DNA of 64,000 bases from a virus (taxonomy: Duplodnaviria; Heunggongvirae; Uroviricota; Caudoviricetes). Location of the stretch: positions 22,201 through 86,200 of the IMG/VR virus record IMGVR_UViG_3300037471_001733, one strand, 5' to 3'. Below are positions 3,728 through 56,038 of the stretch, in pieces. The notes below the pieces were generated by a model. That model had not been told where the DNA came from, did not search any database, and saw only the letters and a program-made list of their open reading frames with translations. The translations under genes and the position numbers were made by a program. Positions within the stretch are counted from its first letter, which is position 1; each line of letters starts with the position of its first letter.

Positions 3728-4455
3728 TGCGCGGACCTCAGTCGGAATTGATGCATGGAACGAGGGGCCTGTGACTGGCTGCTGCCGGAGCCGAGAACTT
3801 CGATGGCGGCCAGCGTCCAGGTCTGTGAAGCGGGGGCCGTCATGCCAATCGCGTAGGTGCCAGTGGCGCCTGAATCGGCGTGGTAGCCGTGGTACACGCA
3901 GTACTCGTTGGCCAGTGTGTCGTTGTTCTGCGCAACGGCAGCAGTGCGCTGCGTGAACGTCCCGGCATTGCTGCGGTATGTCTGCGATGTCAACGCAGTG
4001 GCCGCACGGTCGCCGATGAACATCACCGCCGCCGAGTTGGCCCCGGTGGTCGTCAAGTTGACGGACGGAGCCGTGCCGGTACCGGAGCCAGAGACAACGG
4101 CACCGACGCCGCCAGCACTGCGGAACTGGTACGCCGTCGCGCCGAACACGATGCCATCGTCTCCTTCAGTGCCAGCGCCGCGCGAGACCGAGATCGTCAC
4201 GGACGCTGCCGTGGACGCAGTGGCGGTCCAGATGTAGAGCTCAGCGTGCGACGAGTCGACCGCGACGTCCGCGCGTTGCGTGTACGTGTTCGTCGCGCTG
4301 TCGCTAACGACTAGGCCGTCAATGTGCGATTTCAGGGTGCCAATGACGACGATCAGGTCGCCAACCTGCGTCGTGAGCGACATGGTCAGCGCGCTGCCGA
4401 AGGCCTGGGCCCATGTGCTCGTGTTTACGCTGGTGACAAAGGTTGGTGCTGCCAT
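3724..4455 (-). CDS. Hypothetical structural protein
   Basis: 243-aa ORF; ATGA overlap with the upstream gene; T/S/A-rich beta-like composition. Confidence 0.45.
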   Translation of the reverse strand: MAAPTFVTSVNTSTWAQAFGSALTMSLTTQVGDLIVVIGTLKSHIDGLVVSDSATNTYTQRADVAVDSSHAELYIWTATASTAASVTISVSRGAGTEGDDGIVFGATAYQFRSAGGVGAVVSGSGTGTAPSVNLTTTGANSAAVMFIGDRAATALTSQTYRSNAGTFTQRTAAVAQNNDTLANEYCVYHGYHADSGATGTYAIGMTAPASQTWTLAAIEVLGSGSSQSQAPRSMHQFRLRSAQ

Positions 4456-10185: not shown

Positions 10186-11481
10186 CTACCCTTGGTTGCG
10201 CGCTGAAAGCGCTTGACTGGATGCCGCCAAGTCGTTGTTGTCTTGCTGTGCCGGGGCCGCGCCAGCGGGGTTGCTTGGCATGCCTAATTCCGGATCAGAG
10301 GCGTCGCCCATGTTCACGGGCGCGCGGTAGATTTCGCCGCCCTCGTACGGGTTCTGCTCCTCGTAGGCGCGGATCTCGTTCGCGTTGAGCGCGCCCATCT
10401 GCCAGAGGCGGAAGTAGTACTCGGCGCGGTCACGCGCGGCGCCGCGCATCAAGGCATTGGCGTTGAACTTCGCGTAGATACCGTCGTCCAGGTCACGCTC
10501 GCTAAGCAGGTTGCAGTCGATGCTCTGCTCGATGCGTTCGTACCAAGGCGCCAGGCAGTGCACCACGTGCGCCAGGAACATCTGCTCCGCGCTGGCGTAA
10601 GTGGCCGTCTTGTCGCTGTAGCCGACCATCAGTGGCGCGCACCTAAAAATTCTGCACACCTCTTCGATCTGGTGACGTCTCGTTTCGAGATGCTGGCTAT
10701 CAACGCCCGTCATCGACGTCGGCACAAACTTGGCGCCGCGGTCAAGAATCATCGGGCGGAATCTCGCTTCGCCTGTCATGTTCTTCTCGACCCAGTTGCG
10801 CAGAGCAAGGAACTGGTCCGGAAGCAGCTTGTCGTCCACGCTGTAGATGCCAGTGGACTGCGCGCCATTGGCATGCATCAGCGCATGCGCCTCTTCGGTC
10901 GCCATCGCAAGGCCTATGGCCTCGCGAGCCAACTGCAACGGCTTTAGGCCGTCATAGCCGTTCCAACTCAGCCCTTTGACGTGCCAGATCGCCTCAGCCG
11001 GGAAGTCCTGCGACTGCCCAGTGATCTCGCTGCTTACGCGGTACACCGGCCGGCGGAACTGGTCCACATCCACGCACACCTCGTGCGGGAGAAACGGGAT
11101 CAACTCGCGGATCTTGCCGTTGACGACGTTCTTGAACGCCACGAAACGACCGGCCAAGCACACATGCGCGGCCAGCATCTCGCGGAACTCGAAGGACGTC
11201 TGCCAAGGGTTCGGCCGGCGGTACAGCACGCGATACAGCGGGTGGTCCTTCGCCGGATCGCTGCCGCCGTCGTCACGCTCCTTGTAGAGCTTCAAGGGCA
11301 CCTGCGCGATGCCCTCGGCAATCACGCGCACGCACGCCAGGACCGTCGTCACCTGCAGCGCGGTTTCCACCGTGACGTTCTGACCCGAACGCGACGCAGG
11401 AAACCAGCCGCTCCAGAAAGGCTCAGTGAACGCCTGCGCCCGGCGCTGCCGCGGCGCCATCATCTTCGACAGGAAACTCAC
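10186..11481 (-). CDS. Portal protein, HK97 family
   Basis: 431 aa, positioned between the large terminase and the protease; sequence typical of HK97-family portals. Confidence 0.8.
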   Translation of the reverse strand: MSFLSKMMAPRQRRAQAFTEPFWSGWFPASRSGQNVTVETALQVTTVLACVRVIAEGIAQVPLKLYKERDDGGSDPAKDHPLYRVLYRRPNPWQTSFEFREMLAAHVCLAGRFVAFKNVVNGKIRELIPFLPHEVCVDVDQFRRPVYRVSSEITGQSQDFPAEAIWHVKGLSWNGYDGLKPLQLAREAIGLAMATEEAHALMHANGAQSTGIYSVDDKLLPDQFLALRNWVEKNMTGEARFRPMILDRGAKFVPTSMTGVDSQHLETRRHQIEEVCRIFRCAPLMVGYSDKTATYASAEQMFLAHVVHCLAPWYERIEQSIDCNLLSERDLDDGIYAKFNANALMRGAARDRAEYYFRLWQMGALNANEIRAYEEQNPYEGGEIYRAPVNMGDASDPELGMPSNPAGAAPAQQDNNDLAASSQALSARNQG

Positions 11482-11756
11482 TCGGCAGCCTTCCCGTCAC
11501 CGGCACGCGCGCGGATGCCCATCAGGCCCAGGCCCAGCGCCAGCAAGCCGCCGACGATGAAGCCAGCCGGCAGGGAGTACAGGCCGGTGCCATAGGCAAC
11601 AGCCCCGGCGCCGCCCAGCGCCAGCATGTCCGGCATCAGAAAGGCCAACAGTTCGCCGCCGGCCGCAATCAGGCCCAGCATGGCGCGGCCAAGGGTCAAC
11701 ATTCGGCGGGCCAGAAATGTCCTGGCACCGGCGATCTTCGTTCGCAGGTTTTTCAC
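11478..11756 (-). CDS. Small hydrophobic protein between terminase and portal
   Basis: 92 aa, Gly/Ala/Leu-rich predicted membrane segments; overlaps the stop and start of both neighbours. Confidence 0.4.
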   Translation of the reverse strand: MKNLRTKIAGARTFLARRMLTLGRAMLGLIAAGGELLAFLMPDMLALGGAGAVAYGTGLYSLPAGFIVGGLLALGLGLMGIRARAGDGKAAE

Positions 11757-13513
11757 GGCGTCAGGACTTCCCAGAATGACTTTCCAGTGGACTCGGTGGT
11801 TCTGGACATCAAGCCCACGGCCATCACAGCCGCCACGATGAGGTCGATGCGGCCCGTGGCCTTTTCCTTGCTGAGCTTGCGGTTCTCGGCGTCATCCATC
11901 ACCGTCACCGCGTTGCTCGCACACCAGTTGAAAACTGGGTGGTCGTTGTGCGCCAACTCGTTGTTGAGCAGCATTCGCTCGAACTCTTCAACGGCTGGCG
12001 AAGCCTCTTTGTAACCTTGCCCGAACGCGACCATGGGCGGTAGGCTGATGCCTTCGTCGTCGGCAAGCGCCAGCAAGTCTTCGATGCGCCAGCGGTCGTA
12101 TGCGACGCCCTGGATCTCGAATGCCTCGGACAGCGCGGACAGCCGCTGCAGCACGTTGCGCTTGCTGATCGCGCGCCCCGGCGTGGTGTCCAAGTGCCCG
12201 GCAGCTTTCCACTGCACGTAGGGCACTCGATCGGTTTCGGCCTTCTTCTGCAGCCCCTCATCAGGCAGCCAGGCGAACGGCACTAGGTGCCACGGCTCGC
12301 CTTCCTCTTGCGGCTCAACCAGCAGCACCAGCCCCGTAAGGTCGGTGGTGGACGACAGGTCCAGCCCGGCCCAGGCTCGCCGGCCGCGCAGGTCTTGCCA
12401 GTTGAAGGTGCGAATCGCACTCTTCCAAACGTCGGCCGACAGCCACGGCGAATCGGCATCCGTCCACTGGCAGAAATTCAGCCGGCGGACGATCGCCTCC
12501 TTAGACGGCATGCCGCGCGCTTCGGTCACCTGCTCGCGCAGGTACTTCATGCCCGGCAGATCGGCGTCCTGCAGCGAAGGGTTGGCCTTCACCCAGCACG
12601 ACTCGTCCGAGAAAGGATCCTCGCCTTCATCTAGGGCGCACACGAAACTGAAGAACGCATCGTCCTCCAGCGTCCCCGCTGCGACCTTTGCGCCGTACTC
12701 GTGGTACGCCCAGCACGGCCCCCGTTTGTCGGAGCCGCTGTTGGTGATCATGAAGATCAGCGCCTGCCGCCGGCTCTTGGTGCCGGCGCGCATCATCTCC
12801 ACGACCGTGTTGGTCTTGTGCTCGTGCAGCTCGTCGATGAGCGCAATGTGCGGCCGCGGGCCGGACTGCCCATCGTCCGAGCTGATCGGGCGGAAGAAGC
12901 TGCCGGCCTGCAGGTAGGCCAGGTTCCACACCCGCTCGCCCGTGCCGCTCTTGGTCAGCCGCTTAGCGAGTTCCGGCGACTGGTCCACCATGGCCACCGC
13001 GTCGCGGAAGAGGATCATGGCCTGATCCTTCTTCGTCGCCGCAGCGTAGACCTCTGCGCGCGCCTCGCTGTCGGCGGTCAGGCCAAGAAGCCCAATGCCC
13101 GCCGAAAGGGGCGACTTCCCGGAGCCCTTGGCCGTCTCGACGTAGGCAACACGGAACCGCCGCCAGCCGTCAGAACCCTTCCAGCCGAACAGACTGCCGA
13201 TGACGAATTTCTGCCACGGCAGAAGCTCGAAGGGCTTTCCCTCAAAGTCGCCGCCGTTGAGCTTCAGGACGTTGCGGTAGTACCGCAGCGCCTTCAGGGC
13301 GGTCTCCAGGTCCCAATTCAGGCCGCGTGCCGGGCCTTTCTCCAGGTCGCGCAGGTGGCGCGCGCATGCCGCGCGCACATGCGGGCCGGCGATGCGTTTG
13401 CCGTCAACGACGGATTGGGCGTACTCGGTGACCGGATCGTCACCAGTCGGGACGTCAGCCGAAGAATTCCTGTAAGTGGTCTTCCTTTTGGTCGTCGTCG
13501 GCGTTTTGGACAT
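11753..13513 (-). CDS. Terminase large subunit
   Basis: 586 aa; Walker-A-like ETAKGSGKSPL plus a C-terminal nuclease-like region; Terminase_1-type. Confidence 0.85.
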   Translation of the reverse strand: MSKTPTTTKRKTTYRNSSADVPTGDDPVTEYAQSVVDGKRIAGPHVRAACARHLRDLEKGPARGLNWDLETALKALRYYRNVLKLNGGDFEGKPFELLPWQKFVIGSLFGWKGSDGWRRFRVAYVETAKGSGKSPLSAGIGLLGLTADSEARAEVYAAATKKDQAMILFRDAVAMVDQSPELAKRLTKSGTGERVWNLAYLQAGSFFRPISSDDGQSGPRPHIALIDELHEHKTNTVVEMMRAGTKSRRQALIFMITNSGSDKRGPCWAYHEYGAKVAAGTLEDDAFFSFVCALDEGEDPFSDESCWVKANPSLQDADLPGMKYLREQVTEARGMPSKEAIVRRLNFCQWTDADSPWLSADVWKSAIRTFNWQDLRGRRAWAGLDLSSTTDLTGLVLLVEPQEEGEPWHLVPFAWLPDEGLQKKAETDRVPYVQWKAAGHLDTTPGRAISKRNVLQRLSALSEAFEIQGVAYDRWRIEDLLALADDEGISLPPMVAFGQGYKEASPAVEEFERMLLNNELAHNDHPVFNWCASNAVTVMDDAENRKLSKEKATGRIDLIVAAVMAVGLMSRTTESTGKSFWEVLTP

Positions 13514-13955
13514 GAACCTTGGACCTCGCGGCCGGCGTCAGCCCGAACTCGACCAGCCACGCCTTGAAGCGCCGGTCGGCATCGGCCAGCATGGCCACCG
13601 CCGGGTTCGCTTTGATGCTGCGGTCGCCCTGCGTGTTCGTTGTTTCGTAGGTAGGGCCGTCCTGGTTCACCAGTTCCTGATACCGCAGGATCTCGGCGTA
13701 CACGGCGCAGCCTCTCTCAAGGGCGTAGGCATCGGCCTCGGTTAGCACGCCCATCCGATCCAGCAGCACAGACATGCGGCCCCAGGCAACCTTGGCCTCG
13801 TCGGACAAGTGGCTGGGGCAACTAGGTATCTCGCGGCGTGGTTTGGGCTCGCTCTTGTTGAGCGCGCGCCTTCCCGGGTTGCCTGTAACTATTTTTAAGT
13901 GGCTCGGTTTTGGCCTGCGCCCCGCCATATCTCTATTCCTTGACTGGCCAGCCAT
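13455..13955 (-). CDS. Terminase small subunit, P27 family
   Basis: 166 aa; KPSHLKIVTGNPGRRALNKSEPKP...FGLTPAARSKV is typical of P27-family small terminases. Confidence 0.7.
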   Translation of the reverse strand: MAGQSRNRDMAGRRPKPSHLKIVTGNPGRRALNKSEPKPRREIPSCPSHLSDEAKVAWGRMSVLLDRMGVLTEADAYALERGCAVYAEILRYQELVNQDGPTYETTNTQGDRSIKANPAVAMLADADRRFKAWLVEFGLTPAARSKVHVQNADDDQKEDHLQEFFG

Positions 13956-14214: not shown

Positions 14215-14271
14215 GCGCGCCTCGGGAAAGAAAAGGCCCGCCTGCCGGAGAGCCGGGGCGAGCAGAAACCT

Positions 14272-14358
14272 GTGGCGCGGACGGCTGGGCTCGAACCAGC
14301 GACCTGCAGCGCTGGTCTTTGCGAACCCGCTGCTTCTCTACCGGCTGAGATACGCCCG
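14272..14358 (-). tRNA. tRNA-like element with aberrant 16-18-nt anticodon loop (pseudo-tRNA or intron-containing)
   Basis: Minus-strand sequence GCGGGCG-TA-TCTC-AGCCGGTA-GAGA-A-GCAGCG[16 nt]CGCTGC-AGGTC-GCTGG-TTCGAGC-CCAGC-CGTCCGC-G-CCA. Acceptor, D and T arms are canonical; the anticodon arm is not. Confidence 0.45.
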
Positions 14359-14365
14359 CGTCGGA

Positions 14366-14392
14366 AACGAAAAAGCCCGCGCGAGGCGGGCT
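14366..14392. terminator. Bidirectional hairpin terminator
   Basis: GCCCGC-GCGAG-GCGGGC hairpin flanked by AAAAA and TTT. Confidence 0.5.
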
Positions 14393-14552
14393 TTGAGAAA
14401 TCTGCAGAGACACCTATCCCACGGACCTGTCGGAATTGGGATAGATTCACCGGGAGGCCGTAAGCGTAGCCGGCGTGGGCCAATTGTACGGCTTGTTGTC
14501 TTGCACACGCAACAGGGGCTGTCAAGGGCTCGCGAGCGACGCCCACATATCT

Positions 14553-40820: not shown

Positions 40821-41599
40821 GCTCCAGCCCTCCGCGCAGTCGGCCGGTAACTCTCCCAAGGAAACGGCACCCAGCGACACGTCTCGGCCAGTCGATCAAA
40901 GGTGCGCTCACCAACGAACTGCTTGAAGCCCGCCGAGTTCTGGTTCGTGAGCAGGATGGTCGGCTTGACATCGCGGTAACGGCCGTCCAGCACGTCGAAG
41001 ACGATGTTCTGCTCGCTATCGGTGCCGTACTGCACGCCAACCTCGTCGATGACCAGCAGGTCCAGGTCCGTCAGGTAGCGCAGCACCTGCGTCTCGCTCT
41101 TCTCGCTGTCGCGCCGCCACGTCTCGCGGATCATGCGGATCAGGTCCATGCAGGTCACGTAGCGCACATCCGGCGAAAGCAGCGACTGCAGGACAGCGCC
41201 AGCGAGGTGGCTTTTGCCGGTGCCCGGCTTGCCGGCCAAGATCAGCCCGGAGCCCTTGCGCGAGTGCTCGGCAAAGTTCTCCGCGAAATCGCGCGTCACC
41301 GTCAGCGCATGGCGCTTCTCGTCGGTGTCGGCCACGAAGTTGTCGAACGTGCGGCCGATGAAGCGCGTCGGGATCATGGCGCTGGCCAGCATCCGGCTAT
41401 GGCGCTCTTCAGCGTCGCGGCGCTTTTGCTCAGCCTCGGCCGCGCGGTCCTCCTTGGCCTTGGCCTCTTCGCAGGCAGGACAGCGCGACCAGATGCGGCC
41501 GAAGATGTTGCGGCTCGTGTAGTCCCCGTGCTCGAGGCAAGAGGCTGCGCGCTCTTCCACCTGGCGCCTCACGGTGTCAGACAAGCGATCCATCGTCAT
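40817..41599 (-). CDS. DnaC-like/IstB-like replicative helicase loader ATPase
   Basis: Walker A GKPGTGKSHLAG; Walker B LLVIDEVG; C-terminal TILLTNQN. Confidence 0.75.
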   Translation of the reverse strand: MTMDRLSDTVRRQVEERAASCLEHGDYTSRNIFGRIWSRCPACEEAKAKEDRAAEAEQKRRDAEERHSRMLASAMIPTRFIGRTFDNFVADTDEKRHALTVTRDFAENFAEHSRKGSGLILAGKPGTGKSHLAGAVLQSLLSPDVRYVTCMDLIRMIRETWRRDSEKSETQVLRYLTDLDLLVIDEVGVQYGTDSEQNIVFDVLDGRYRDVKPTILLTNQNSAGFKQFVGERTFDRLAETCRWVPFPWESYRPTARRAGA

Positions 41600-42656
41600 C
41601 CACGCCTTCGCGGTAGTCCTTGGAGTCAAAACCAGCGTGCTTGCTGGCACCTTGGCTGCCGGCGACCGGCAGTTCGTCCATCCAGCGCCCCTGGTTCAAC
41701 CAAGTAGACGGATGCGGGATGTACTTGCCGCCATCGCGCGTCCAGTCAGTGGACTGCTTCTGCACCTTGATGGCATTCAGCATCGTGGCCAGCAGCTCAA
41801 CTCCAACTTGGCGCTTTTCAAAGGCGCGACGTGCCGCGTCAATGCCGACCTTCCTCGGGTATGCGCTCCAGAAATCCTCGAATCGACCGTCACCCCCAGG
41901 GGGGTTAGGGGGGTATTGGTTCCCTTGACGGTTAATTGACGGTTCTCCGTACCGTTTTTGGGACTGCTTCTCGGGAAAAACGGTACCGCTTCCACGGAAA
42001 AACGGTACTGCTTCACCATCCTCCGAAGCTGTACCGTTTTTGGCATAGCTTCCCAGACGTCGAGTCCGCTCCGCGATTGTTGCCGCGCGCAACTTGCTGG
42101 GAGTGCCTTCGTTCTTGCACAGCGGGTCCAAGTCGTACTGGCGGAACAGCCTCATTTCTGCCGCGCTGGCCTCCTCCGGCGTTTCAAACACCTCCAACAC
42201 CTCGCGCACCAGCAGGCGGCCGGCAGCGATCTGCTCGCGCGGCCACTTGCCGCTTCCACGATAGGCGTCTGCCTCGGGGTCTCCGCAAAAAGAGCGCTTA
42301 CCCAGGTAGAAATTGCCCGTCTCCGGGTCTGTCACTCGGTACGTGTAGTGCGTGGCTGACGCCGTAGGCAGGCCAAGCAGCCGATAGACCGGGATGGAGC
42401 CGGTCACACCAACGCGCTTGCCCGTGTCCATAAGCAGACCGGCGTCTTGCAAGTTCTTGATGTTCTTGATGAGAGTCTTGCGGTCGCAGCAGGTGTCCTG
42501 CTCCAGCCGCAGGATGCTCGGGTAACAGAACCCGAACTCGTCGGCGTAGTTGGCAAGGCAGACCATCAAGAACTTTTCGCTGGACTTCGGCATGTCCAGC
42601 TTGAAGGCGTAGGCGAGGGCTGGGATGCTCACAGCGGACCTCCCCGCACGTTCCAT
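41577..42656 (-). CDS. Replication initiator/replisome organiser (lambda-O-like N-terminal HTH); contains a possible GIY-YIG-like segment
   Basis: Start MERAGR; N-terminal LMVCLANYADEFGFCYPSILRLEQDTCCDRKTLIKNIKNLQDAGLL; internal YTYRVTDPETGNFYLGKRS. Confidence 0.6.
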   Translation of the reverse strand: MERAGRSAVSIPALAYAFKLDMPKSSEKFLMVCLANYADEFGFCYPSILRLEQDTCCDRKTLIKNIKNLQDAGLLMDTGKRVGVTGSIPVYRLLGLPTASATHYTYRVTDPETGNFYLGKRSFCGDPEADAYRGSGKWPREQIAAGRLLVREVLEVFETPEEASAAEMRLFRQYDLDPLCKNEGTPSKLRAATIAERTRRLGSYAKNGTASEDGEAVPFFRGSGTVFPEKQSQKRYGEPSINRQGNQYPPNPPGGDGRFEDFWSAYPRKVGIDAARRAFEKRQVGVELLATMLNAIKVQKQSTDWTRDGGKYIPHPSTWLNQGRWMDELPVAGSQGASKHAGFDSKDYREGVDDDGSLV

Positions 42657-42895
42657 TGCCGCGCAGCCTCTACTGCAGCCTCCATGGCGTCTTCCAGCAC
42701 CACATCGGGCCCGTGCGACTCGCACTGCCAGCACTCGACCTTGGCGTTGAATGCCAGGTCGCCGTTGTTGTCCGTGGTCGGGCTGACCTCAGCGCATGCG
42801 TTGCCGTCGTTGCAGAACGGGCACGGCTTCAGGCCGGCGTTGATTTTTTCCAGCTCAGCGTTGAACCGTTTGCTGTTGAAACGGGGGTTGCTCAT
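42629..42895 (-). CDS. Lar-family-like zinc-finger protein
   Basis: 88 aa; CPFCNDGNACAEV...CWQCESHG. Confidence 0.45.
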   Translation of the reverse strand: MSNPRFNSKRFNAELEKINAGLKPCPFCNDGNACAEVSPTTDNNGDLAFNAKVECWQCESHGPDVVLEDAMEAAVEAARQWNVRGGPL

Positions 42896-50366: not shown

Positions 50367-50432
50367 CCATCTAACTGATCCATGCCCGGCGCGGGCTGCG
50401 CGCCAATTCCACAGAAGACGGAGACGGAAACC

Positions 50433-51374
50433 ATGACTACTGCACTCGCTCTCATGAGCAACCGCCTGGCGCAACGCTTCGGCATGGTCGAAGACGCCGA
50501 GTTGATTCCTGTGCTCAAGGCAACTGCGTTCAAAGGTCAGGTCAGTGACGCGCAGATGACGGCGCTGCTGATCGTTGCCGATCAATACGGCCTGAATCCG
50601 TGGACCAAGGAAATCTACGCTTTCCCAGACCCGCAGAACGGCATCGTGCCGGTGGTCAGCGTTGACGGCTGGAGCCGCATCATCAATGAGCACCCCGCCT
50701 TCGACGGCATTGAGTTCGAGTTGTCCGGCAAGGGCGATGACATGGAGATGCTGTGCCGCATCTTCCGCAAGGACCGCAGCCGCCCGATCGCAGTGACGGA
50801 GTACTTGACCGAGTGCAAGCGTGAAACGAAGCCTTGGAAGTCTCACCCGCGACGCATGCTGCGTCACAAGGCTGAGATCCAATGCGCCCGATTGGCCTTC
50901 GGCTTCGCTGGGCTCCACGACCACGACGAGGCGGAGCGCATTGTGGAAGCATCGTCTGGCGCACCGAAGAACATGGGGGCAGCCCAGGTGGTCGAGGCCG
51001 CCGCAGCTGCGGAAATGCCGCTCGGCCTGCTGGAGTCAGCCGAGAGCGCTGCGACCGAAGGGGTGGCCATCTATCAGGAATTCTGGAAGTCAACCGGCCC
51101 GGAAAACCGCAAGGCGCTGGCTGGCCACCATGCGCGGCTGAAGCAAGCAGCCATTGACGCCGACGCGGCGCGCACGGTGGAGATGCCCACGACCGGCGGC
51201 CAAGCCGAGCAGCCCACGCTGGACCTGGTGGCGCTGGAGCGGCGCATCGGCAGCTGCAACGACGCTCAGGTGTTGCTGCTCATTGCCGACGACGTGGCCA
51301 CGCTGCCCGAGGGTGAGGATCGCGCGCGGCTGGAGAAGTTGATCGCGGTGCGCGGCGAAGCGCTGGAGGGCTGA
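50433..51374 (+). CDS. recT: RecT-family single-strand annealing protein
   Basis: LNPWTKEIYAFPDPQNGIVPVVSVDGWSRIINEHPAFDGIEFE...MLRHKAEIQCARLAFGF; RBS GGAGACGG. Confidence 0.8.
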   Translation: MTTALALMSNRLAQRFGMVEDAELIPVLKATAFKGQVSDAQMTALLIVADQYGLNPWTKEIYAFPDPQNGIVPVVSVDGWSRIINEHPAFDGIEFELSGKGDDMEMLCRIFRKDRSRPIAVTEYLTECKRETKPWKSHPRRMLRHKAEIQCARLAFGFAGLHDHDEAERIVEASSGAPKNMGAAQVVEAAAAAEMPLGLLESAESAATEGVAIYQEFWKSTGPENRKALAGHHARLKQAAIDADAARTVEMPTTGGQAEQPTLDLVALERRIGSCNDAQVLLLIADDVATLPEGEDRARLEKLIAVRGEALEG

Positions 51375-51377
51375 TCT

Positions 51378-52064
51378 ATGGCGCTAATCGTCCACACCGA
51401 CCCGCAGGGTAGTGAGGCGTGGCTCGCGGCACGCCGCGGCATCCCGACCGGCAGCCGTTTCAAGGATTGCCGTGACTACCTAAAGCCCACGGCAGCCGAG
51501 GTCAAGGCCGGCGCCACGCGCGGCAAGCCCTCCGCGAAGCTGCTGGGCTATGCGATGGATCTGGCGCGCGAGCGGGTCGGTGGCCATGTGCCTCCCGTGT
51601 TCCAGACCGCCGCGATGCGTACCGGCCATATCGAGGAGCCAAAAGCACGACTCGCCTACGAGGAAGAGACCGGCAACATCGTGATCGAAGCCGGCTTCAT
51701 CACGACGGAAGACCGGCGCTGGGGCGTGTCGGTGGACGGCCTCGTGAAGCCCAAGGGTGGAATCGAGGTGAAGACTATGGTGAGCAGCGCCACGCTGTTC
51801 AAGGCCGTGGTCGAAGGCGACATCAGTGAGTACATCGACCAGATCAACGGCGCGATCCTGCTGCTTGAACTGGACTGGCTCGACCTTGTGCTCTGGGCGC
51901 CCGACCTGGCGCACCTGGGGCGCGGGCTCACCATCCGCCGCATCTGGCGTGACGAAGCTGCGATCCGAGCACTGGAAGCGGACCTGCTGACCTTCGTGGC
52001 GCTGGTCAATGACTTCGAGGCCGCGCTGCGTGCGCCGGCAGTGGAAACCGAAGGAGCCTTCTGA
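51378..52064 (+). CDS. YqaJ-like PD-(D/E)XK exonuclease (RecE/lambda-exo partner of RecT)
   Basis: HTDPQGSEAWLAARRGIPTGSRFKD N-terminal motif; immediately downstream of recT. Confidence 0.75.
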   Translation: MALIVHTDPQGSEAWLAARRGIPTGSRFKDCRDYLKPTAAEVKAGATRGKPSAKLLGYAMDLARERVGGHVPPVFQTAAMRTGHIEEPKARLAYEEETGNIVIEAGFITTEDRRWGVSVDGLVKPKGGIEVKTMVSSATLFKAVVEGDISEYIDQINGAILLLELDWLDLVLWAPDLAHLGRGLTIRRIWRDEAAIRALEADLLTFVALVNDFEAALRAPAVETEGAF

Positions 52065-52321
52065 TGGCAATCGACAAGTCCCTGCGCGGCGGCCAGTTCG
52101 AGACCGTCTACAGGAAGGACACGATTTCGCTCGAATGGGTGCAGCCGGGTCCAGACAGGAAGTCGCTAGTGCTCGCAACCGTCGATACGCAATTGTGCGA
52201 CGAAGATTTTGCGCTTGAGCAGGCGTTTGCGGAGTTTCAGCGGCACCTGATGTCTTCGTTCCTCAAGCACAGGCTGGGCTTTGTCTCGGTTAGGCCGGGA
52301 GACGGGCCGGACACGCACTAG
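52064..52321 (+). CDS. Hypothetical protein
   Basis: 85 aa; ATGA overlap. Confidence 0.4.
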   Translation: MAIDKSLRGGQFETVYRKDTISLEWVQPGPDRKSLVLATVDTQLCDEDFALEQAFAEFQRHLMSSFLKHRLGFVSVRPGDGPDTH

Positions 52322-52341
52322 ACACTTTTCGGGCGATCCCA

Positions 52342-52397
52342 GCGTGATGAGCTTTTTCCAATCTTCGTCTCCTCCCTAGCGGGCTTGCTCATCACGC
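52342..52397 (+). promoter_or_regulatory. Perfect 11-bp inverted repeat (stable RNA hairpin) upstream of the 7-deazaguanine genes
   Basis: GCGTGATGAGC-N34-GCTCATCACGC. Confidence 0.35.
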
Positions 52398-52607
52398 GCA
52401 GCTTCGGCTGCCGCCTTTCTTCTTTCTGCGGCGAACAACAGCACGACGGGGTCTGCTTCCTCCCTGTACTCCTCCTTACCCGTCGTGCGGCGGCGTGTGC
52501 TGCCAGCCGCTCTTTCTTTTGATGGCAACTGCGAAAACCCCGGGGCTACGAGCGCGGCCAGCAGAGCCGCGCCGCCAGCCCCACCAACCAACTACAGCGA
52601 GATTCAC

Positions 52608-53357
52608 GTGATCCACTACCACGGACTGCCGATTACGCCGGACACGGCAGCAGAGCGTGCTATTGCTGGCGGCCATGCGTTTGTGTCATTCGCGCACCCT
52701 GAGCAATTGGGTCTCGCTGCGGCTGTGGCGCAATCATTCGCCATTGATAACGGCGCGTTCTCGGCTTGGCGGGCCGGCCGTCCGGTAACGGACTGGACGC
52801 CTTTCTACGAATGGGCTGCCGCAGCCAAGCGCATCCCTGGCTGCGACTTCGCCGTCATACCTGATGTCATTGACGGCACTGAGGCTGACAACGATGCGTT
52901 GCTTGCCGAGTGGCCGCTGCCCAACTGGTTCGGGGCGCCCGTGTGGCACATGAACGAGGGCCTGGATCGCCTGGAGCGCTTGGCCACCGTCTTCCCTCGC
53001 GTGTGCATCGGCAGTTCTGGCGAGTTCGCAATGGTGGGAACGCCGACGTGGTGGGGCCAGATCGCCCGCGCCATGCGTGTTGTGTGCGACGACGATGGGC
53101 GCCCGATGTGCAGGCTCCATGGCCTGCGCATGCTGGACCCGGAAGTGTTCAAGCATCTCCCGTTTTCCAGCGCAGACAGCACGAATATCGGCCGCAACAT
53201 TGGCATCGATCAAGCTTGGCGCGGCACCTATACGCCGCCGACGAAAGAGGCGCGGGCAGCTGTCATGCGCTCGCGCATTGAGGCTGAGAACGCGCCAGCA
53301 CGCTGGGCGTTTCGCATCCCCGAGTTCCATCCTGAAGACCAAGGGAGCCTGCTGTGA
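52608..53357 (+). CDS. Candidate DpdA-family (TGT-like) DNA-guanine transglycosylase; start uncertain (GTG 52608; track ORF from 52485)
   Basis: Call rests on context: directly precedes and overlaps queC-queE-queD. N-terminal HYHGLPITP is reminiscent of the TGT HGxxxTP motif. No family-level motif verified. Confidence 0.4.
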   Translation: MIHYHGLPITPDTAAERAIAGGHAFVSFAHPEQLGLAAAVAQSFAIDNGAFSAWRAGRPVTDWTPFYEWAAAAKRIPGCDFAVIPDVIDGTEADNDALLAEWPLPNWFGAPVWHMNEGLDRLERLATVFPRVCIGSSGEFAMVGTPTWWGQIARAMRVVCDDDGRPMCRLHGLRMLDPEVFKHLPFSSADSTNIGRNIGIDQAWRGTYTPPTKEARAAVMRSRIEAENAPARWAFRIPEFHPEDQGSLL

Positions 53358-53890
53358 GCAAAGTTATCCTGTTGTCCGGCGGCCTGGATTCCGCCCTGTG
53401 CTTGGCTCGCTACGGCGCCGACTTGGCCATTGGCTTCAATTACGGACAGCCGCATGCGATTGAGTTGGCCCATGCCGAGCGCATTGCAAGGCAGCACGGC
53501 GTGCCTTTCGAGATCCATGCGCTGCCGACCATGCCGCGCGTCAACGACGTCGTCTTCGCCGGCCGCAATGCGGTGATGCTGACGGCAGCCGCAGCCATTG
53601 CTCAGGCGCGCGGCCACGACGCGGTGTTGATCGGCTGCAACTTCTCGGATGCCACCCGGTTTCCTGACTGCCGGCCGGAATTCATTCGCAACATCAGCAA
53701 GGCGCTTGAGTCGGCATATGGCGTAAGCGTCTGCGCGCCGCTGCTGTTGTCCACCAAGACGCAGATAGTGGCAGAGGCCAAGCAACGCGGCATCACGGAC
53801 ACCTGGACCTGTTACGCGCCCACAACTGATGGTCAGCAGTGCGGCCAGTGCTACTCCTGCCAGGGCATCGCCTCAGCGAGCGCGTCATGA
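53354..53890 (+). CDS. queC: 7-cyano-7-deazaguanine synthase QueC
   Basis: PP-loop VILLSGGLDSALCL; C-terminal CGQCYSCQ zinc site; GTG start overlapping the upstream stop. Confidence 0.85.
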   Translation: MSKVILLSGGLDSALCLARYGADLAIGFNYGQPHAIELAHAERIARQHGVPFEIHALPTMPRVNDVVFAGRNAVMLTAAAAIAQARGHDAVLIGCNFSDATRFPDCRPEFIRNISKALESAYGVSVCAPLLLSTKTQIVAEAKQRGITDTWTCYAPTTDGQQCGQCYSCQGIASASAS

Positions 53891-54507
53891 CCTATACCGT
53901 CAAGGAGATCTTCTACACGCTGCAGGGCGAGGGCTTGCACGCCGGGCGCCCAGCGGTGTTCTGCCGCTTCGCCGGGTGCAACCTGTGGAGCGGGCGTGAG
54001 CAGGACAGGAGCAAGGCGGCATGCCGTTTCTGCGACACCGAGTTCCGCGGCGGCACGAAGTACCGCACGCCCGAGGATTTGGCTGATGCCATTGAGCAGG
54101 CGTGGGCGCCGCAGGTGGTGGCCCGACGCATGGTGGTGCTCACCGGCGGCGAGCCGGCGCTGCAGGTGGATCAGGCGCTTGTGCACTTGCTGCAGGCCCG
54201 CGGGTTCTATGTCGCCATCGAGACGAACGGCACCAAGGAACTGCCGCAGGGTCTGGATTGGGTGTGCGTGAGCCCCAAGGGCGATGAGCCGCTGCGTGTG
54301 GTGCATGGCAACGAGCTGAAGCTGGTGTACCCGCAGATGCTGGCACTGCCGCAGCGGTTTGAGGAGTTGGCCTTCGACCACTTCCTTCTGCAGCCCATGG
54401 ACGGCCCGTTCCTTGAGGCCAACACCCAGGCTGCCATCGAGTTCTGCATGGGCAACCCAAAGTGGCGGCTCTCGGTGCAGACCCACAAGTACATCGGAGT
54501 GCGCTGA
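53887..54507 (+). CDS. queE: 7-carboxy-7-deazaguanine synthase QueE (radical SAM)
   Basis: FCRFAGCNLWSGREQDRSKAACRFCDT cluster; ATGA overlap with queC. Confidence 0.85.
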   Translation: MTYTVKEIFYTLQGEGLHAGRPAVFCRFAGCNLWSGREQDRSKAACRFCDTEFRGGTKYRTPEDLADAIEQAWAPQVVARRMVVLTGGEPALQVDQALVHLLQARGFYVAIETNGTKELPQGLDWVCVSPKGDEPLRVVHGNELKLVYPQMLALPQRFEELAFDHFLLQPMDGPFLEANTQAAIEFCMGNPKWRLSVQTHKYIGVR

Positions 54508-54509
54508 CC

Positions 54510-54965
54510 ATGCCCACCACCATCATGAAACGCCTGGAGTTCGACGCCGGGCACCGCATCCCCAACCACGCCAGCAAGTGCCGCAACCTGCACGGCCACA
54601 GGTACGCGCTGGAAATCACGCTGGTGGGCGAGCCCATCGACGCCCCCGGCACCAGCAGCCACGGGATGCTGGAGGACTTCAGCGACGTGAAGCGCTTGGC
54701 GATGGAGCACCTCGTGGAGCCCTGGGACCACGCTTTCCTGGTGTACGAGGGCGACACGCAGGTGCTGGCGCTGCTGGCCGCGCTGCCCGGCCACAAGACC
54801 GTGGTGCTGCCGCGCGTGCCCACGGCCGAGAACCTCGTGGCGCTGGCCTTTGAAACGCTGGCGCCGATCTACACCGACCGCTTCGGCAACGGGCTGCGCC
54901 TGGAGCGCGTGCGCCTGTGGGAAACGCCGACGTGCTGGGCGGACTTCAGTTCCACAACCAACTGA
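54510..54965 (+). CDS. queD: 6-carboxy-5,6,7,8-tetrahydropterin synthase QueD
   Basis: RLEFDAGHRIPNHASKCRNLHGHRY is typical of the QueD/PTPS family. Confidence 0.8.
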   Translation: MPTTIMKRLEFDAGHRIPNHASKCRNLHGHRYALEITLVGEPIDAPGTSSHGMLEDFSDVKRLAMEHLVEPWDHAFLVYEGDTQVLALLAALPGHKTVVLPRVPTAENLVALAFETLAPIYTDRFGNGLRLERVRLWETPTCWADFSSTTN

Positions 54966-54973
54966 CGAGCACC

Positions 54974-56038
54974 ATGTTCAAAAACTTGACCTTGTTGCGC
55001 ATCAGCAGCGACTGGCTGCCCGATGCCATCGCTGCCGAGGACCAGCTGGCGCGCGAGCCCTTCACCGCCTGCGGTGCGACACAACCCGCGAGTGCTGGCT
55101 GGGTGCCGCCGCGAGGTGTGCCGCATGCGCCGCTGCTGGAGGTCATCGGCGGCCATTGGATTCTGTCGTTGATGTCAGAGCGCCGGCTGCTGCCCGGATC
55201 TGTCATCAAGGACCGCGTTGCCGAGATGACTGCCGAGTTCGAGAAGGCCAACGGCTACAAGGTCGGCAAGCGCCAGCGCAAGGAACTGGTGGCGCAGGCC
55301 GAGCAGGAGTTGCTGCCGAAGGCATTCACGAAACGCTCGCTGACCAAGGTGTGGCTCGACCCCCGCGCCCGCCTCCTAGCGGTCGACACCGGCAGCGCCA
55401 GCGCGGCCGAGTCTGTGGTTTCGATGCTGGTCAAGAGCCTGGACGGCTTTGGTGTGCAGCCTGTGACGACTTGGCTGGCGCCGGCCGGCGCGATGGCGGC
55501 TTGGATCAGCGAAGGCTGCGCGCCAAGCGGCTTCAGCCTGGACCGCGAGTGCGAGCTCAAGTCCACGGACGAGATGAAGAGCGTCGTCCGCTACGCCCGC
55601 CACTCGCTGGACAACGATGACGTGCGCCGCCACATCGCATCCGGCAAGCGCCCGACGCGCCTGGCGCTGTCCTGGGGCGACCGCGTGGCGTTCACCTTGA
55701 CCGATGGGCTTGTGCTCAAGCGCATCGAGTTTCTTGACGTCGCCATGGAAGGCCGCTCCGAAGTGGACGCGGCAGAGGCCTTTGACGCTGATGCTGCTAT
55801 CGCCTGCGGCGAGCTCAGCCGCCTGATACCGGATCTGCTGGCGGCGCTTGGTAACGAGGCTGAGCAGTCGCGCATCCACGAGGAAGAATCCAGCCCCAAG
55901 GCTGCGCTACAGGACCCCGCAGTGCCGAATTTGGACCACATCAGTACATCAGCGCTCTACTTGGCAGCGCAGGTGGAGCAGCAGATGGCTCCGATACGCG
56001 CGGCCCTGTCCGAGACTGCAGGAGCCGCCAAGGCATGA
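54974..56038 (+). CDS. rdgC: Recombination-associated protein RdgC
   Basis: MFKNLTLLRISSDWLPDAIAAEDQLAREPFTACGATQPASAGWVPP parallels the RdgC N-terminus. Confidence 0.7.
   Translation: MFKNLTLLRISSDWLPDAIAAEDQLAREPFTACGATQPASAGWVPPRGVPHAPLLEVIGGHWILSLMSERRLLPGSVIKDRVAEMTAEFEKANGYKVGKRQRKELVAQAEQELLPKAFTKRSLTKVWLDPRARLLAVDTGSASAAESVVSMLVKSLDGFGVQPVTTWLAPAGAMAAWISEGCAPSGFSLDRECELKSTDEMKSVVRYARHSLDNDDVRRHIASGKRPTRLALSWGDRVAFTLTDGLVLKRIEFLDVAMEGRSEVDAAEAFDADAAIACGELSRLIPDLLAALGNEAEQSRIHEEESSPKAALQDPAVPNLDHISTSALYLAAQVEQQMAPIRAALSETAGAAKA

Follow-up and report, generated by a model that had tools for sequence, protein, structure and literature searches.

The stretch of Caudoviricetes DNA analyzed here (IMG/VR record IMGVR_UViG_3300037471_001733; 64,000 nucleotides (nt), hereafter the window) encodes an 87-nt tRNA-like RNA on its minus strand, at 14273..14359. 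The acceptor, D and T arms of this RNA are of normal design, and its anticodon arm is an enlarged, closed hairpin. Orthologues were identified in the same genomic slot at six other distinct phage or metagenome loci. Comparison of the seven sequences tips us slightly toward the view that they form a small conserved family of tRNA-derived, non-decoding phage RNAs, which would be cut from the late transcript and selected for the tRNA body. No description of such a family was found in Rfam, among GenBank phages or PLSDB plasmids, or in the literature searched; this conserved late-leader, anticodon-less tRNA mimic is previously undescribed and has no separate family in Rfam.

Read from 14359 to 14273, the RNA is GCGGGCG UA UCUC AGCCGGUA GAGA A GCAGCG GGUUCGCAAAGACCAG CGCUGC AGGUC GCUGG UUCGAGC CCAGC CGUCCGC G CCA. 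The acceptor stem (GCGGGCG/CGTCCGC) is of 7 bp, including G5.U68, and is followed by U8 and A9. The D arm (UCUC/AGCCGGUA/GAGA) contains one 4-bp stem together with G18 and G19; the variable loop (AGGUC) is 5 nt in length and supplies C48; the T arm (GCUGG/UUCGAGC/CCAGC) contains one 5-bp stem and the UUCGA sequence. The anticodon region reads GCAGCG/GGUUCGCAAAGACCAG/CGCUGC. All the tertiary-contact nucleotides (U8, A14, G15:C48, G18, G19, U54, U55, C56 and A58) are canonical. The preliminary description had the strand right and the ends one base off (14272-14358); its account of a regular acceptor stem with one G-U pair, D arm, T arm, 5-nt variable loop and encoded CCA agrees with the sequence. 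Its GCAGCG/CGCUGC stem enclosing a loop that is not of 7 nt is borne out by both the sequence and the Rfam alignment.

The Rfam tRNA covariance model (RF00005; gathering score, 29 bits) matched 14276-14359 on the minus strand over model positions 1-71, with 48.7 bits and an E value of 1.2e-9. In this alignment, an 18-nt insertion occupies the place of the 7-nt anticodon loop. The tRNA likeness of the element is far beyond chance, and the RNA belongs to the tRNA family as a structure; lack of a covariance-model match, which had been named beforehand as a ground for rejecting the gene, can be set aside. No other Rfam family, intron families included, came near significance at the element. Both the default ARAGORN run and the filtered whole-window Rfam scan (gathering thresholds, fast filters) missed it, so standard annotation would overlook such a gene.

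As had been claimed, the gene lies between two HNH endonuclease genes and close to the terminase genes: the 298-residue HNH298 is upstream, and the 93-residue HNH93, TerS, TerL and portal genes are downstream. The order is the same at the other loci, namely HNH298, a promoter-like block, a leader, a terminator, the tRNA-like RNA, a small HNH gene and the packaging genes. The family comprises seven distinct sequences, mostly on short metagenomic contigs; L152/L153 and L284/L289 are one member each. L148, L151, L152/L153, L155 and L156 were reached via homologues of the flanking proteins, and L284/L289 via a DNA pattern on the common 3′ half. L148 contains the closest HNH93 homologue (88% identity), on a syntenic contig where leader and terminator are followed by one normal tRNA-Gly(UCC) and then by the orthologue. 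HNH298 homologues of 51-70% identity led to L151, L152/L153, L155 and L156. The Rfam tRNA model found the tRNA-like RNA in L151, L152/L153 and L155, with 10-19 nt at the loop position, and a normal tRNA-Gly(UCC) beside the mimic in L148, L152 and L155. The L156 copy was spotted by eye and confirmed by our family model R1, which scores 65-99 bits at the six other loci and 96.1 bits at the window element, its sole match in the window. L284 and L289, from IMG/VR, contain the same leader, a 3′ remnant of tRNA-Gly and the tRNA-like RNA. The 108-residue open reading frames (ORFs) following the element in L152 and L289 are HNH genes, and ORFs of L151 and L155 occupy the same place. One Logan contig is identical to the window and was not counted as an additional member. 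Since a normal tRNA-Ile(GAU) on one viral contig has a 3′ half identical over 27 nt, the element body is ordinary phage-tRNA material.

Covariation was scored on the seven-sequence alignment A4, using 500 shuffles and slid-partner controls. The acceptor, D and T helices are paired in all seven sequences (112 of 112 base-pair cells, for 16 body pairs). Compensatory double changes occur in the D helix (G-C to U-A, giving the unusual UCUC/GAGA of the window) and in the T helix (U-A to G-C), the acceptor stem varies by interchange of G-C, G.U and A-U, and all five outer pairs of the anticodon stem show double changes. Overall, 93.5% of the helix cells are paired, compared to 35-46% in the slid controls. 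None of the 500 shuffles reached the observed covariation; as the sequences belong to one related family, this is an indication rather than a probability. About 12 G.U cells would read A.C on the opposite strand, which indicates selection on the RNA of the minus strand.

The anticodon arm behaves differently. Pairwise identity is 66-95% in the body and 14-71% in the arm; for L155 and L148, the values are 89% and 28%, respectively. Among these sequences the arm diverges far faster than the body, which suggests that the selected function would lie in the tRNA body. That the element is a decaying pseudogene, a phage tRNA drifting to loss after an insertion into its anticodon loop, was one of three options offered by the preliminary description, and we judge it very unlikely. 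Its anticodon loop is indeed destroyed, the window copy is not accepted by ARAGORN at default settings, some members do not encode CCA, and the element is missing from many phages with related HNH93 or terminase genes. However, all 16 body pairs are intact in the window copy and six diverged orthologues, with compensatory substitutions, although the bodies differ by up to 34%. The mutated arms, too, fold into well-formed hairpins, and the element outlasts the neighboring functional tRNA. The mimic option is the one of the three that found support.

The anticodon arms of the seven members are 28, 28, 27, 26, 25, 20 and 18 nt in length, compared to the canonical 17 nt, and fall into three types. 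Type A (the window, L151, L155 and L289) contains one outer stem of 5-6 bp, one unpaired G on the 5′ side and AG(N) or AC on the 3′ side, and an inner helix GGYYN/NRRYC. In the window, these parts are the outer stem GCAGC(G)/(C)GCUGC, an internal loop of G on the 5′ side and AG on the 3′ side, the inner helix GGUU(C)/(A)GACC and a GCAA tetraloop. Across the four type-A members, inner pair 3 is U-A, U.G, C-G and C-G, pair 4 is U.G followed by three C-G, and pair 5 is CxA, U-A, G-C and AxA; the tetraloops are GCAA, GCCA, GCAA and GCCA (GCMA). When RNAalifold was run on these four sequences, it returned the cloverleaf with the outer 5-bp and inner 4-bp arm helices, unprompted. Type B (L152 and L156) has a stem of 7 bp or 5-6 bp and one 6-nt loop, CCACUA, with no U33; type C (L148) has an 8-bp stem and one 9-nt loop, CCUGAUGUA. 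The 16-nt loop reported earlier is itself a hairpin, and the whole arm is an irregular helix of ~10 bp. The outer stem of the window element (GCAGC/GCUGC) recurs without change as the anticodon stem of tRNA-Gly(UCC) in related phages (L152 1306-1322 and L155 4089-4105), and the other type-A outer stems are CCCCA/UGGGG or GGAUC/GGUCC; the identity could result from gene conversion or be a coincidence. Readings of the arm as a K-turn or a boxB element were dropped by eye, as tandem G.A pairs and a GNRA-pentaloop context are absent.

Traces of a tRNA origin are visible in several members. Anticodon-loop-like signatures occur in L151 (CUGCCAA), L148 (CUGAUGU) and the window (UUCGCAA), out of register with the helices. 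G1-C72, C2-G71 and G3-C70 form the glycine acceptor identity set, and the first three acceptor pairs match it in six of the seven members. Loop signatures and acceptor pairs together suggest descent from a real tRNA, and the acceptor stem and some of the arm loops hint at tRNA-Gly as the ancestor. The discriminator is G in six of the seven, unlike the U73 of tRNA-Gly. The mimics of the window and L151 start exactly where tRNA-Gly starts in L148 and share G5 with tRNA-Gly, hence G5.U68; either recombination between the two 5′ ends, with a deletion, or simply a change from A to G could account for this.

These traces would also be expected of a working decoder, either with a mini-intron that is removed or with a long arm of 8-10 bp that is tolerated, of Gly-GCC-like or Ile-GAU-like identity; we find this scarcely credible. 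The signatures are out of register, and the identities they imply disagree between orthologues. Default ARAGORN called the seven members none, Gly(gcc), Leu(cag), none, Ile(gat), none and '???'; with introns allowed, it called Glu, Gly, Asp, Gly and Ile, with 'intron' positions that differ between members. Its intron-allowing call on the window, tRNA-Glu(UUC) with a 9-nt 'intron' at 39/40, leaves the loop GGUUCGC without U33, and we do not consider it meaningful. A decoder would be expected to have a 7-nt loop, with U33 and a purine at position 37, on a stem of 5 bp or at most 6 bp, and its orthologues would agree in anticodon or amino-acid identity. In the window, no paired register gives a 7-nt loop framed by U33 and R37, the type-B loops are of 6 nt, and neither a bulge-helix-bulge motif nor a common intron site is present. 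In known functional tRNAs, the anticodon stem is of 5 bp and at most 6 bp (PMC7609411). The earlier suggestion of a tRNA with a small insertion fits the anatomy only, as the arms differ in length and sequence and have no common anticodon or intron position. Because the anticodon loop is lost, the arm varies in length and sequence among relatives and the body is held by compensatory changes, the element is almost certainly without a decoding role.

Two intron classes were also considered and rejected. For an archaeal/eukaryal-type intron, no contiguous deletion leaves a canonical loop, and the context is that of a bacterial phage. Like the element, archaeal intron-containing tRNAs such as tRNA-Asn(GUU) have 10-20 extra nt in the anticodon region; different from it, their introns lie at 37/38 in a bulge-helix-bulge, and removal restores a canonical loop. 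A group I intron would be of at least 200 nt, whereas only 11 extra nt are present, and no Rfam intron model matched.

The earlier remark that cos/pac signals might be expected in this gap is reasonable. The location between HNH genes and beside the terminase genes would suit a signal acting in DNA: a cos/pac or terminase site, an attachment site, or a target or immunity site of the adjacent free-standing HNH enzyme. Homing endonucleases do associate with phage tRNA clusters, T4 SegB being one such enzyme. We nevertheless regard a DNA-level signal as highly improbable. The strand-specific, G.U-tolerant covariation of four helices is an RNA signature, the cloverleaf is complete with its tertiary-contact nucleotides, and the window retains the tRNA-like RNA but lacks the conserved downstream element that might be cos in the relatives. 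The proposed use as an integration element is not supported, since a complete tRNA-sized unit stands in the late-gene leader with no adjoining integrase, and the G.U pattern indicates RNA-level selection. An attP tRNA fragment was likewise rejected: the sequence is a full 5′-to-3′ cloverleaf between the HNH gene and the terminase module, not a 3′ part next to an integrase.

The block, leader and terminator upstream of the element are conserved at all seven loci. The block has the consensus TTGAC[AG], 31-32 nt, TACAAT/TATACT, and is followed by a structured leader of ~90-125 nt with the invariant motifs GAAUYUG and GGUAGGUGUCUCC; the terminator is kept in L148, L151, L152, L155, L156 and L289. 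Judged by sequence and conservation, the block would function as a promoter and the segment after it as a transcribed late leader; the sigma-70 consensus scan made no call at TTGACA/TACAAT, and the whole unit has no Rfam match. The leader block resembles the lambdoid late-promoter/leader/tR' unit, but no antiterminator gene was found in the window. The terminator stops ~12 nt ahead of G1, which leaves no room for a separate promoter, so the element would be transcribed by late read-through.

In the model we propose, the late (packaging/head) operon begins with this slot, which in related phages holds ordinary tRNA genes, and the element would be transcribed when late transcription reads through the leader terminator. 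RNase P would cut at G1, and the normal 3′ trimming and CCA-repair enzymes would finish the 3′ end. What these enzymes sense is the elbow together with the stacked acceptor and T arms; the anticodon arm plays no part. RNase P and the CCA-adding enzyme both read the distance from elbow to acceptor, a measurement orthogonal to the anticodon arm (PMC4919913). Artificial tRNA scaffolds in which a hairpin stands for the anticodon stem-loop also undergo processing and are stable in E. coli (PMC3753655). The process would yield a tRNA-shaped RNA that is stable, probably uncharged and plentiful late in infection. As to its role, we tentatively suggest action in trans, as a mimic that may occupy or titrate a factor recognizing the tRNA body. 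One candidate partner would be a tRNA-targeting host defence or toxin; the mimic would be unseen by the ribosome, and an anticodon-loop nuclease would have no loop to cut.

As the closest alternative, the element may serve as a processing handle in cis, its tRNA shape being kept so that RNase P and 3′ trimming sever leader and terminator from the packaging/head mRNA; the RNA would then be a by-product and its arm a harmless drifting hairpin. The element always comes last ahead of the first late ORF, right behind the leader terminator, with tRNA-Gly in between where present. The parts needed by RNase P (PMC4919913) are the most conserved, C74 C75 being retained in six of the seven members, and the length of the arm varies so strongly that no fixed distance to its tip can be required. 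The slot contains tRNA-Gly plus mimic, mimic alone, tRNA-Met (L277) or a 167-nt RNA (L281) depending on the phage, and any of these would do equally well as a handle. On the other hand, a handle would be redundant beside an upstream tRNA-Gly, but losses have affected the true tRNA and never the mimic: the mimic is present at all seven loci, tRNA-Gly is absent from four, and L289 retains just its 3′ remnant, ACCCGCUCCA. RNase P accepts minihelix substrates, and the full D arm and tertiary pairs exceed this minimum; nor is the benefit of a 5′-monophosphate mRNA end evident. We consider the handle somewhat unlikely and lean to the trans mimic because the mimic is present at all seven loci and the adjacent true tRNA-Gly has been lost in four members, which is weak evidence.

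A further possibility, in our judgment quite unlikely, is that the arm hairpin is a protein-binding or antisense 'cargo' and that the body serves only for processing and stability, as in a natural tRNA scaffold. The type-A design, with its G/AG internal loop, covarying inner helix and GCMA tetraloop, is common to four diverged members, although this may just reflect their closer relatedness. A perfect 14-nt complement of the arm loop and 3′ strand of L148 (UGAUGUACCGCAGC, L148 415-439) occurs at L148 1513-1526, within a 233-residue zinc-finger/HNH-like ORF further downstream; ~1.5e-4 such matches would be expected by chance in the locus. The 167-nt RNA in the slot of L281, with its inserted hairpins, points the same way. 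There is also the engineered precedent: in the tRNA scaffolds of Ponchon and Dardel, a hairpin replaces the anticodon stem-loop, and the RNAs are processed and stable in E. coli (PMC3753655). Like the element, these scaffolds retain the acceptor, D and T arms and carry a hairpin; different from it, they are man-made with a chosen cargo, whereas the natural arm is only 1-11 nt longer than normal. Against a cargo, a shared function of the three unrelated arm types on one conserved body would need three different cargos. Complements of the window arm do not exceed 10 nt in the 64 kb, which is chance level, and no meaningful second copy of its hairpin motif was found in the window; no equivalent of the 14-nt match was found for the other members.

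The 7-bp hairpin ACCAGCG/CGCUGGT that had been noted as an alternative to the tRNA fold does exist, and it dominates the minimum-energy fold of the window RNA (-40.8 kcal/mol, compared to -36.4 kcal/mol for the cloverleaf). It is peculiar to the window copy and is not conserved in the relatives. Folded as single sequences, four of the six relatives have the cloverleaf with the long arm as their minimum-energy fold; L151 and L155 form the D, anticodon and T arms as in the cloverleaf, with the acceptor helix in a shifted register.

Several observations speak against the interpretation that we favor. The window's own minimum-energy fold is the competing structure, 4.4 kcal/mol below the cloverleaf. 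The family is small, with seven distinct sequences of which four have the arm type of the window, and the relatedness of the members inflates the shuffle statistics. The argument from retention amounts to three or four loss events, and one of the loci was found via the element itself. CCA is encoded in the window and L148 only, the other members having GCCC, GCCU or GUCC, and the type-B members deviate at positions 8, 14 and 15. No antiterminator was found by Pfam, PHROG or BLAST among the ORFs upstream of HNH298, and a late-expressed decoy fits oddly with defences that act early.

The element was not found at ten viral loci (L001-L010) with HNH93 homologues of ≤63% identity, nor at loci with HNH298 homologues of 45% identity, one of which (L277) has a tRNA-Met(CAU) in the slot. 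It is missing from L150 and L277-L282 despite related HNH93 or terminase genes, and from the nearest GenBank phages by TerL, Ralstonia YO103_6 (66%) and Halomonas H4907 (64%). The leader-plus-element region has no match among GenBank phages or PLSDB plasmids. Exact and degenerate DNA patterns of the element returned nothing or chance matches in IMG/VR, and the metagenome pattern scan returned only archaeal intron-containing tRNA-Asn genes. The genome-collection pattern GGTAGAG...GGTTCGARYCCAGC is unspecific, as initiator tRNAs match it too, and does not measure family size or host range.

Table 1. Coordinates of the tRNA-like RNA, its surroundings and related features (positions are those of the window unless a locus is named)
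Feature	Position	Strand	Details
Acceptor 5′ strand of tRNA-like RNA	14353-14359	-	
D arm	14335-14350	-	
Anticodon arm, non-canonical	14306..14333	-	28 nt; canonical 17
Variable loop	14301-14305	-	
T arm	14284-14300	-	
Acceptor 3′ strand	14277-14283	-	
Discriminator G	14276	-	
Encoded CCA	14275-14273	-	
HNH endonuclease (HNH298), 298 aa	14553..15449	-	Pfam HNH, PHROG 1271, homologues P0025-P0028; last gene before leader
Promoter-like block	14483..14525	-	TTGACA 14525-14520; 31 nt including palindrome TTGCGTGTGCAA; TACAAT 14488-14483
Conserved leader segment (~90 nt)	14398..14482	-	Common motifs GUGAAUCU and GGGAUAGGUGUCUC; seven-locus comparison
Intrinsic terminator	14366..14397	-	Stem-loop AAAGCCCGCC UCGCG CGGGCUUU (14394-14372) and U tract; terminator scan
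Hairpin GCUCGCC...GGCGGGC, then CUUUUCUUU	14236..14263	-	Between tRNA-like RNA and HNH93 start codon
Small HNH endonuclease (HNH93), 93 aa	13933..14214	-	Pfam; first ORF past tRNA-like RNA
TerS (P27-type)	13455-13955	-	Pfam; downstream of HNH93
TerL	11753-13513	-	Pfam; downstream of HNH93
Portal	10186-11481	-	Pfam; downstream of HNH93
Promoter-leader-terminator unit, window	14366-14525	-	
Promoter-leader-terminator unit, relatives	L148 130-305; L151 1310-1480; L152 1010-1200; L155 3850-4060; L289 4270-4370		
Junction-like element (~75 nt)	L152 1205-1275; L156 ~1400-1470; L289 ~4372-4445		
Conserved sequence after the tRNA-like RNA	L148 ~480-540; L151 ~1580-1640; L152 ~1445-1505; L155 ~4268-4330; L289 4575-4625		
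Enlarged-arm tRNA-like genes	L194 11494-11586; L172 750-842		
Enlarged-arm tRNA-like genes	L283 9449-9541; L190 3554-3632; L196 139-215; L217 6158-6248	-	

Further conserved features were noticed around the slot (Table 1). Between the terminator and the tRNAs, some relatives contain a conserved element of ~75 nt resembling a three-way junction (GGGGCGGGUUCGCG...GGGGUUGGUUGU...CGCGAUUUNCCNGGUCACNCUGG...CCCC), which is absent from the window. Right after the tRNA-like RNA, the relatives have the strongly conserved sequence GGCGCUACCCAGSSGCMGGUGGGAWMAACAGCSSCAGGCCG, which may belong to a cos region or act as an RNA element; in the window, its place is taken by a different hairpin. This window-specific hairpin, with its U-rich tail, folds at -18 to -19 kcal/mol, no better than shuffles, and is possibly a weak terminator or an mRNA 5′ hairpin. 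The 167-nt RNA of the more distant phage (L281 1739-1905) contains, as its only recognizable tRNA parts, a perfect 7-bp acceptor (GUCAGCG/CGCUGAC), a T arm and UCCA, together with several inserted hairpins; neither ARAGORN nor Rfam matched it.

The packaging module is HK97-like and lies in a prophage of 64% G+C, which is probably inducible. An Azohydromonas HNH match and the TerL of the Ralstonia phage give only hints of a proteobacterial host, possibly of the Burkholderiales. Genes for RecT, a YqaJ-type exonuclease and RdgC are located at 50382-56038 on the opposite (plus) strand, and one HTH_36 replication-type protein is encoded at 41577-42734 on the minus strand; phage-type genes therefore extend over most of the window, from either a single large prophage or two side by side.

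Other tRNA-like genes with enlarged anticodon regions, of 12-35 extra nt, were found in unrelated IMG/VR contigs (Table 1), one set showing a change from AAUGG/CCAUU to AAGGG/CCCUU. Those of L194, L283 and L190 lie just upstream of terminase genes, and that of L217 is flanked by aminotransferase and zinc-ribbon ORFs. A tRNA-like RNA without a D arm, composed of the acceptor GCGAGCG/CGUUCGC, a 10-bp central helix (GCCGCCUGUU/AACAGGCGG) and a T arm, occurs in L157, L158, L161 and ~12 other viral loci; in L161 (11832-11908, minus strand), it is directly upstream of a C-5 cytosine DNA methylase gene. Bacterial contigs, from metagenome-assembled or other genomes, contain tRNA genes with anticodon 'loops' of 15-19 nt (L031 459-544, minus strand; L085 5485-5581; L120 6583-6675; L070 3343-3438), one of them a Vibrio locus that appears to be a hybrid of two tRNA genes. 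Expanded-arm tRNA-like genes are thus not confined to this phage group. It is conceivable, although we would not put much weight on it, that the family represents natural 'tRNA-scaffold' RNAs: a self-processing, nuclease-resistant tRNA chassis, cut in large amounts from the start of the late transcript and used as decoy or sponge for host factors that bind the tRNA body, tRNA-targeting abortive-infection toxins among them, or as carrier of a small functional hairpin. With its anticodon arm remade as a closed hairpin, such an RNA would be kept out of translation and would present no anticodon loop to a nuclease of that specificity. The unrelated enlarged-arm genes upstream of terminase genes would then be independent cases of the same strategy.

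Among known systems, the late operon of the P22-like phages L and Sf6 has tRNA genes close to its start, in the first tens of bases (PMC8022706). These ordinary tRNAs share slot, size class and cloverleaf body with the element; however, they have a 5-bp stem, a 7-nt loop and a readable anticodon, whereas the element has a closed hairpin of 18-28 nt and no consistent anticodon. Species 1 and 2 RNAs of T4, the RNase P-processed precursor of P1/P7 C4 RNA, MALAT1 mascRNA and the MHV68 vtRNAs are tRNA-shaped or tRNA-processed and non-decoding. Some of these are viral and stand beside real tRNA genes, but they are not homologous to the element and mostly lack one or more canonical arms, while the element keeps all but the anticodon loop. 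Like the element, YrlA and the tRNA-like domain of tmRNA mimic the elbow and the acceptor/T-arm stack. In the bacterial Y RNA-like YrlA, the two RNA ends lie in the helix that replaces the anticodon stem, and the 'acceptor' is closed. tmRNA has no D stem and carries a tag ORF, whereas the 87-nt element has a normal D arm and ends at a normal acceptor with discriminator and CCA; tmRNA identity was rejected, as the ARAGORN tmRNA search was negative and Rfam gave no such family. The features by which we propose to define the family, a tRNA body and a closed non-canonical arm, located after a promoter-leader-terminator unit and before a small HNH gene and packaging genes, are all present in the window.

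The presence of tRNA genes in phages is commonly ascribed to codon supply or, in more recent work, to escape from anticodon nucleases. Here, a phage tRNA lineage without decoding is under clear structural selection and outlasts the true tRNA beside it. If the body alone matters, infection or defence would include a tRNA-dependent step in which the ribosome has no part. Annotation pipelines miss such genes or assign arbitrary anticodons to them, so phage tRNA censuses and the codon-usage arguments built on them are contaminated. The family also appears to be a natural counterpart to the 'tRNA scaffold' trick of recombinant RNA expression.

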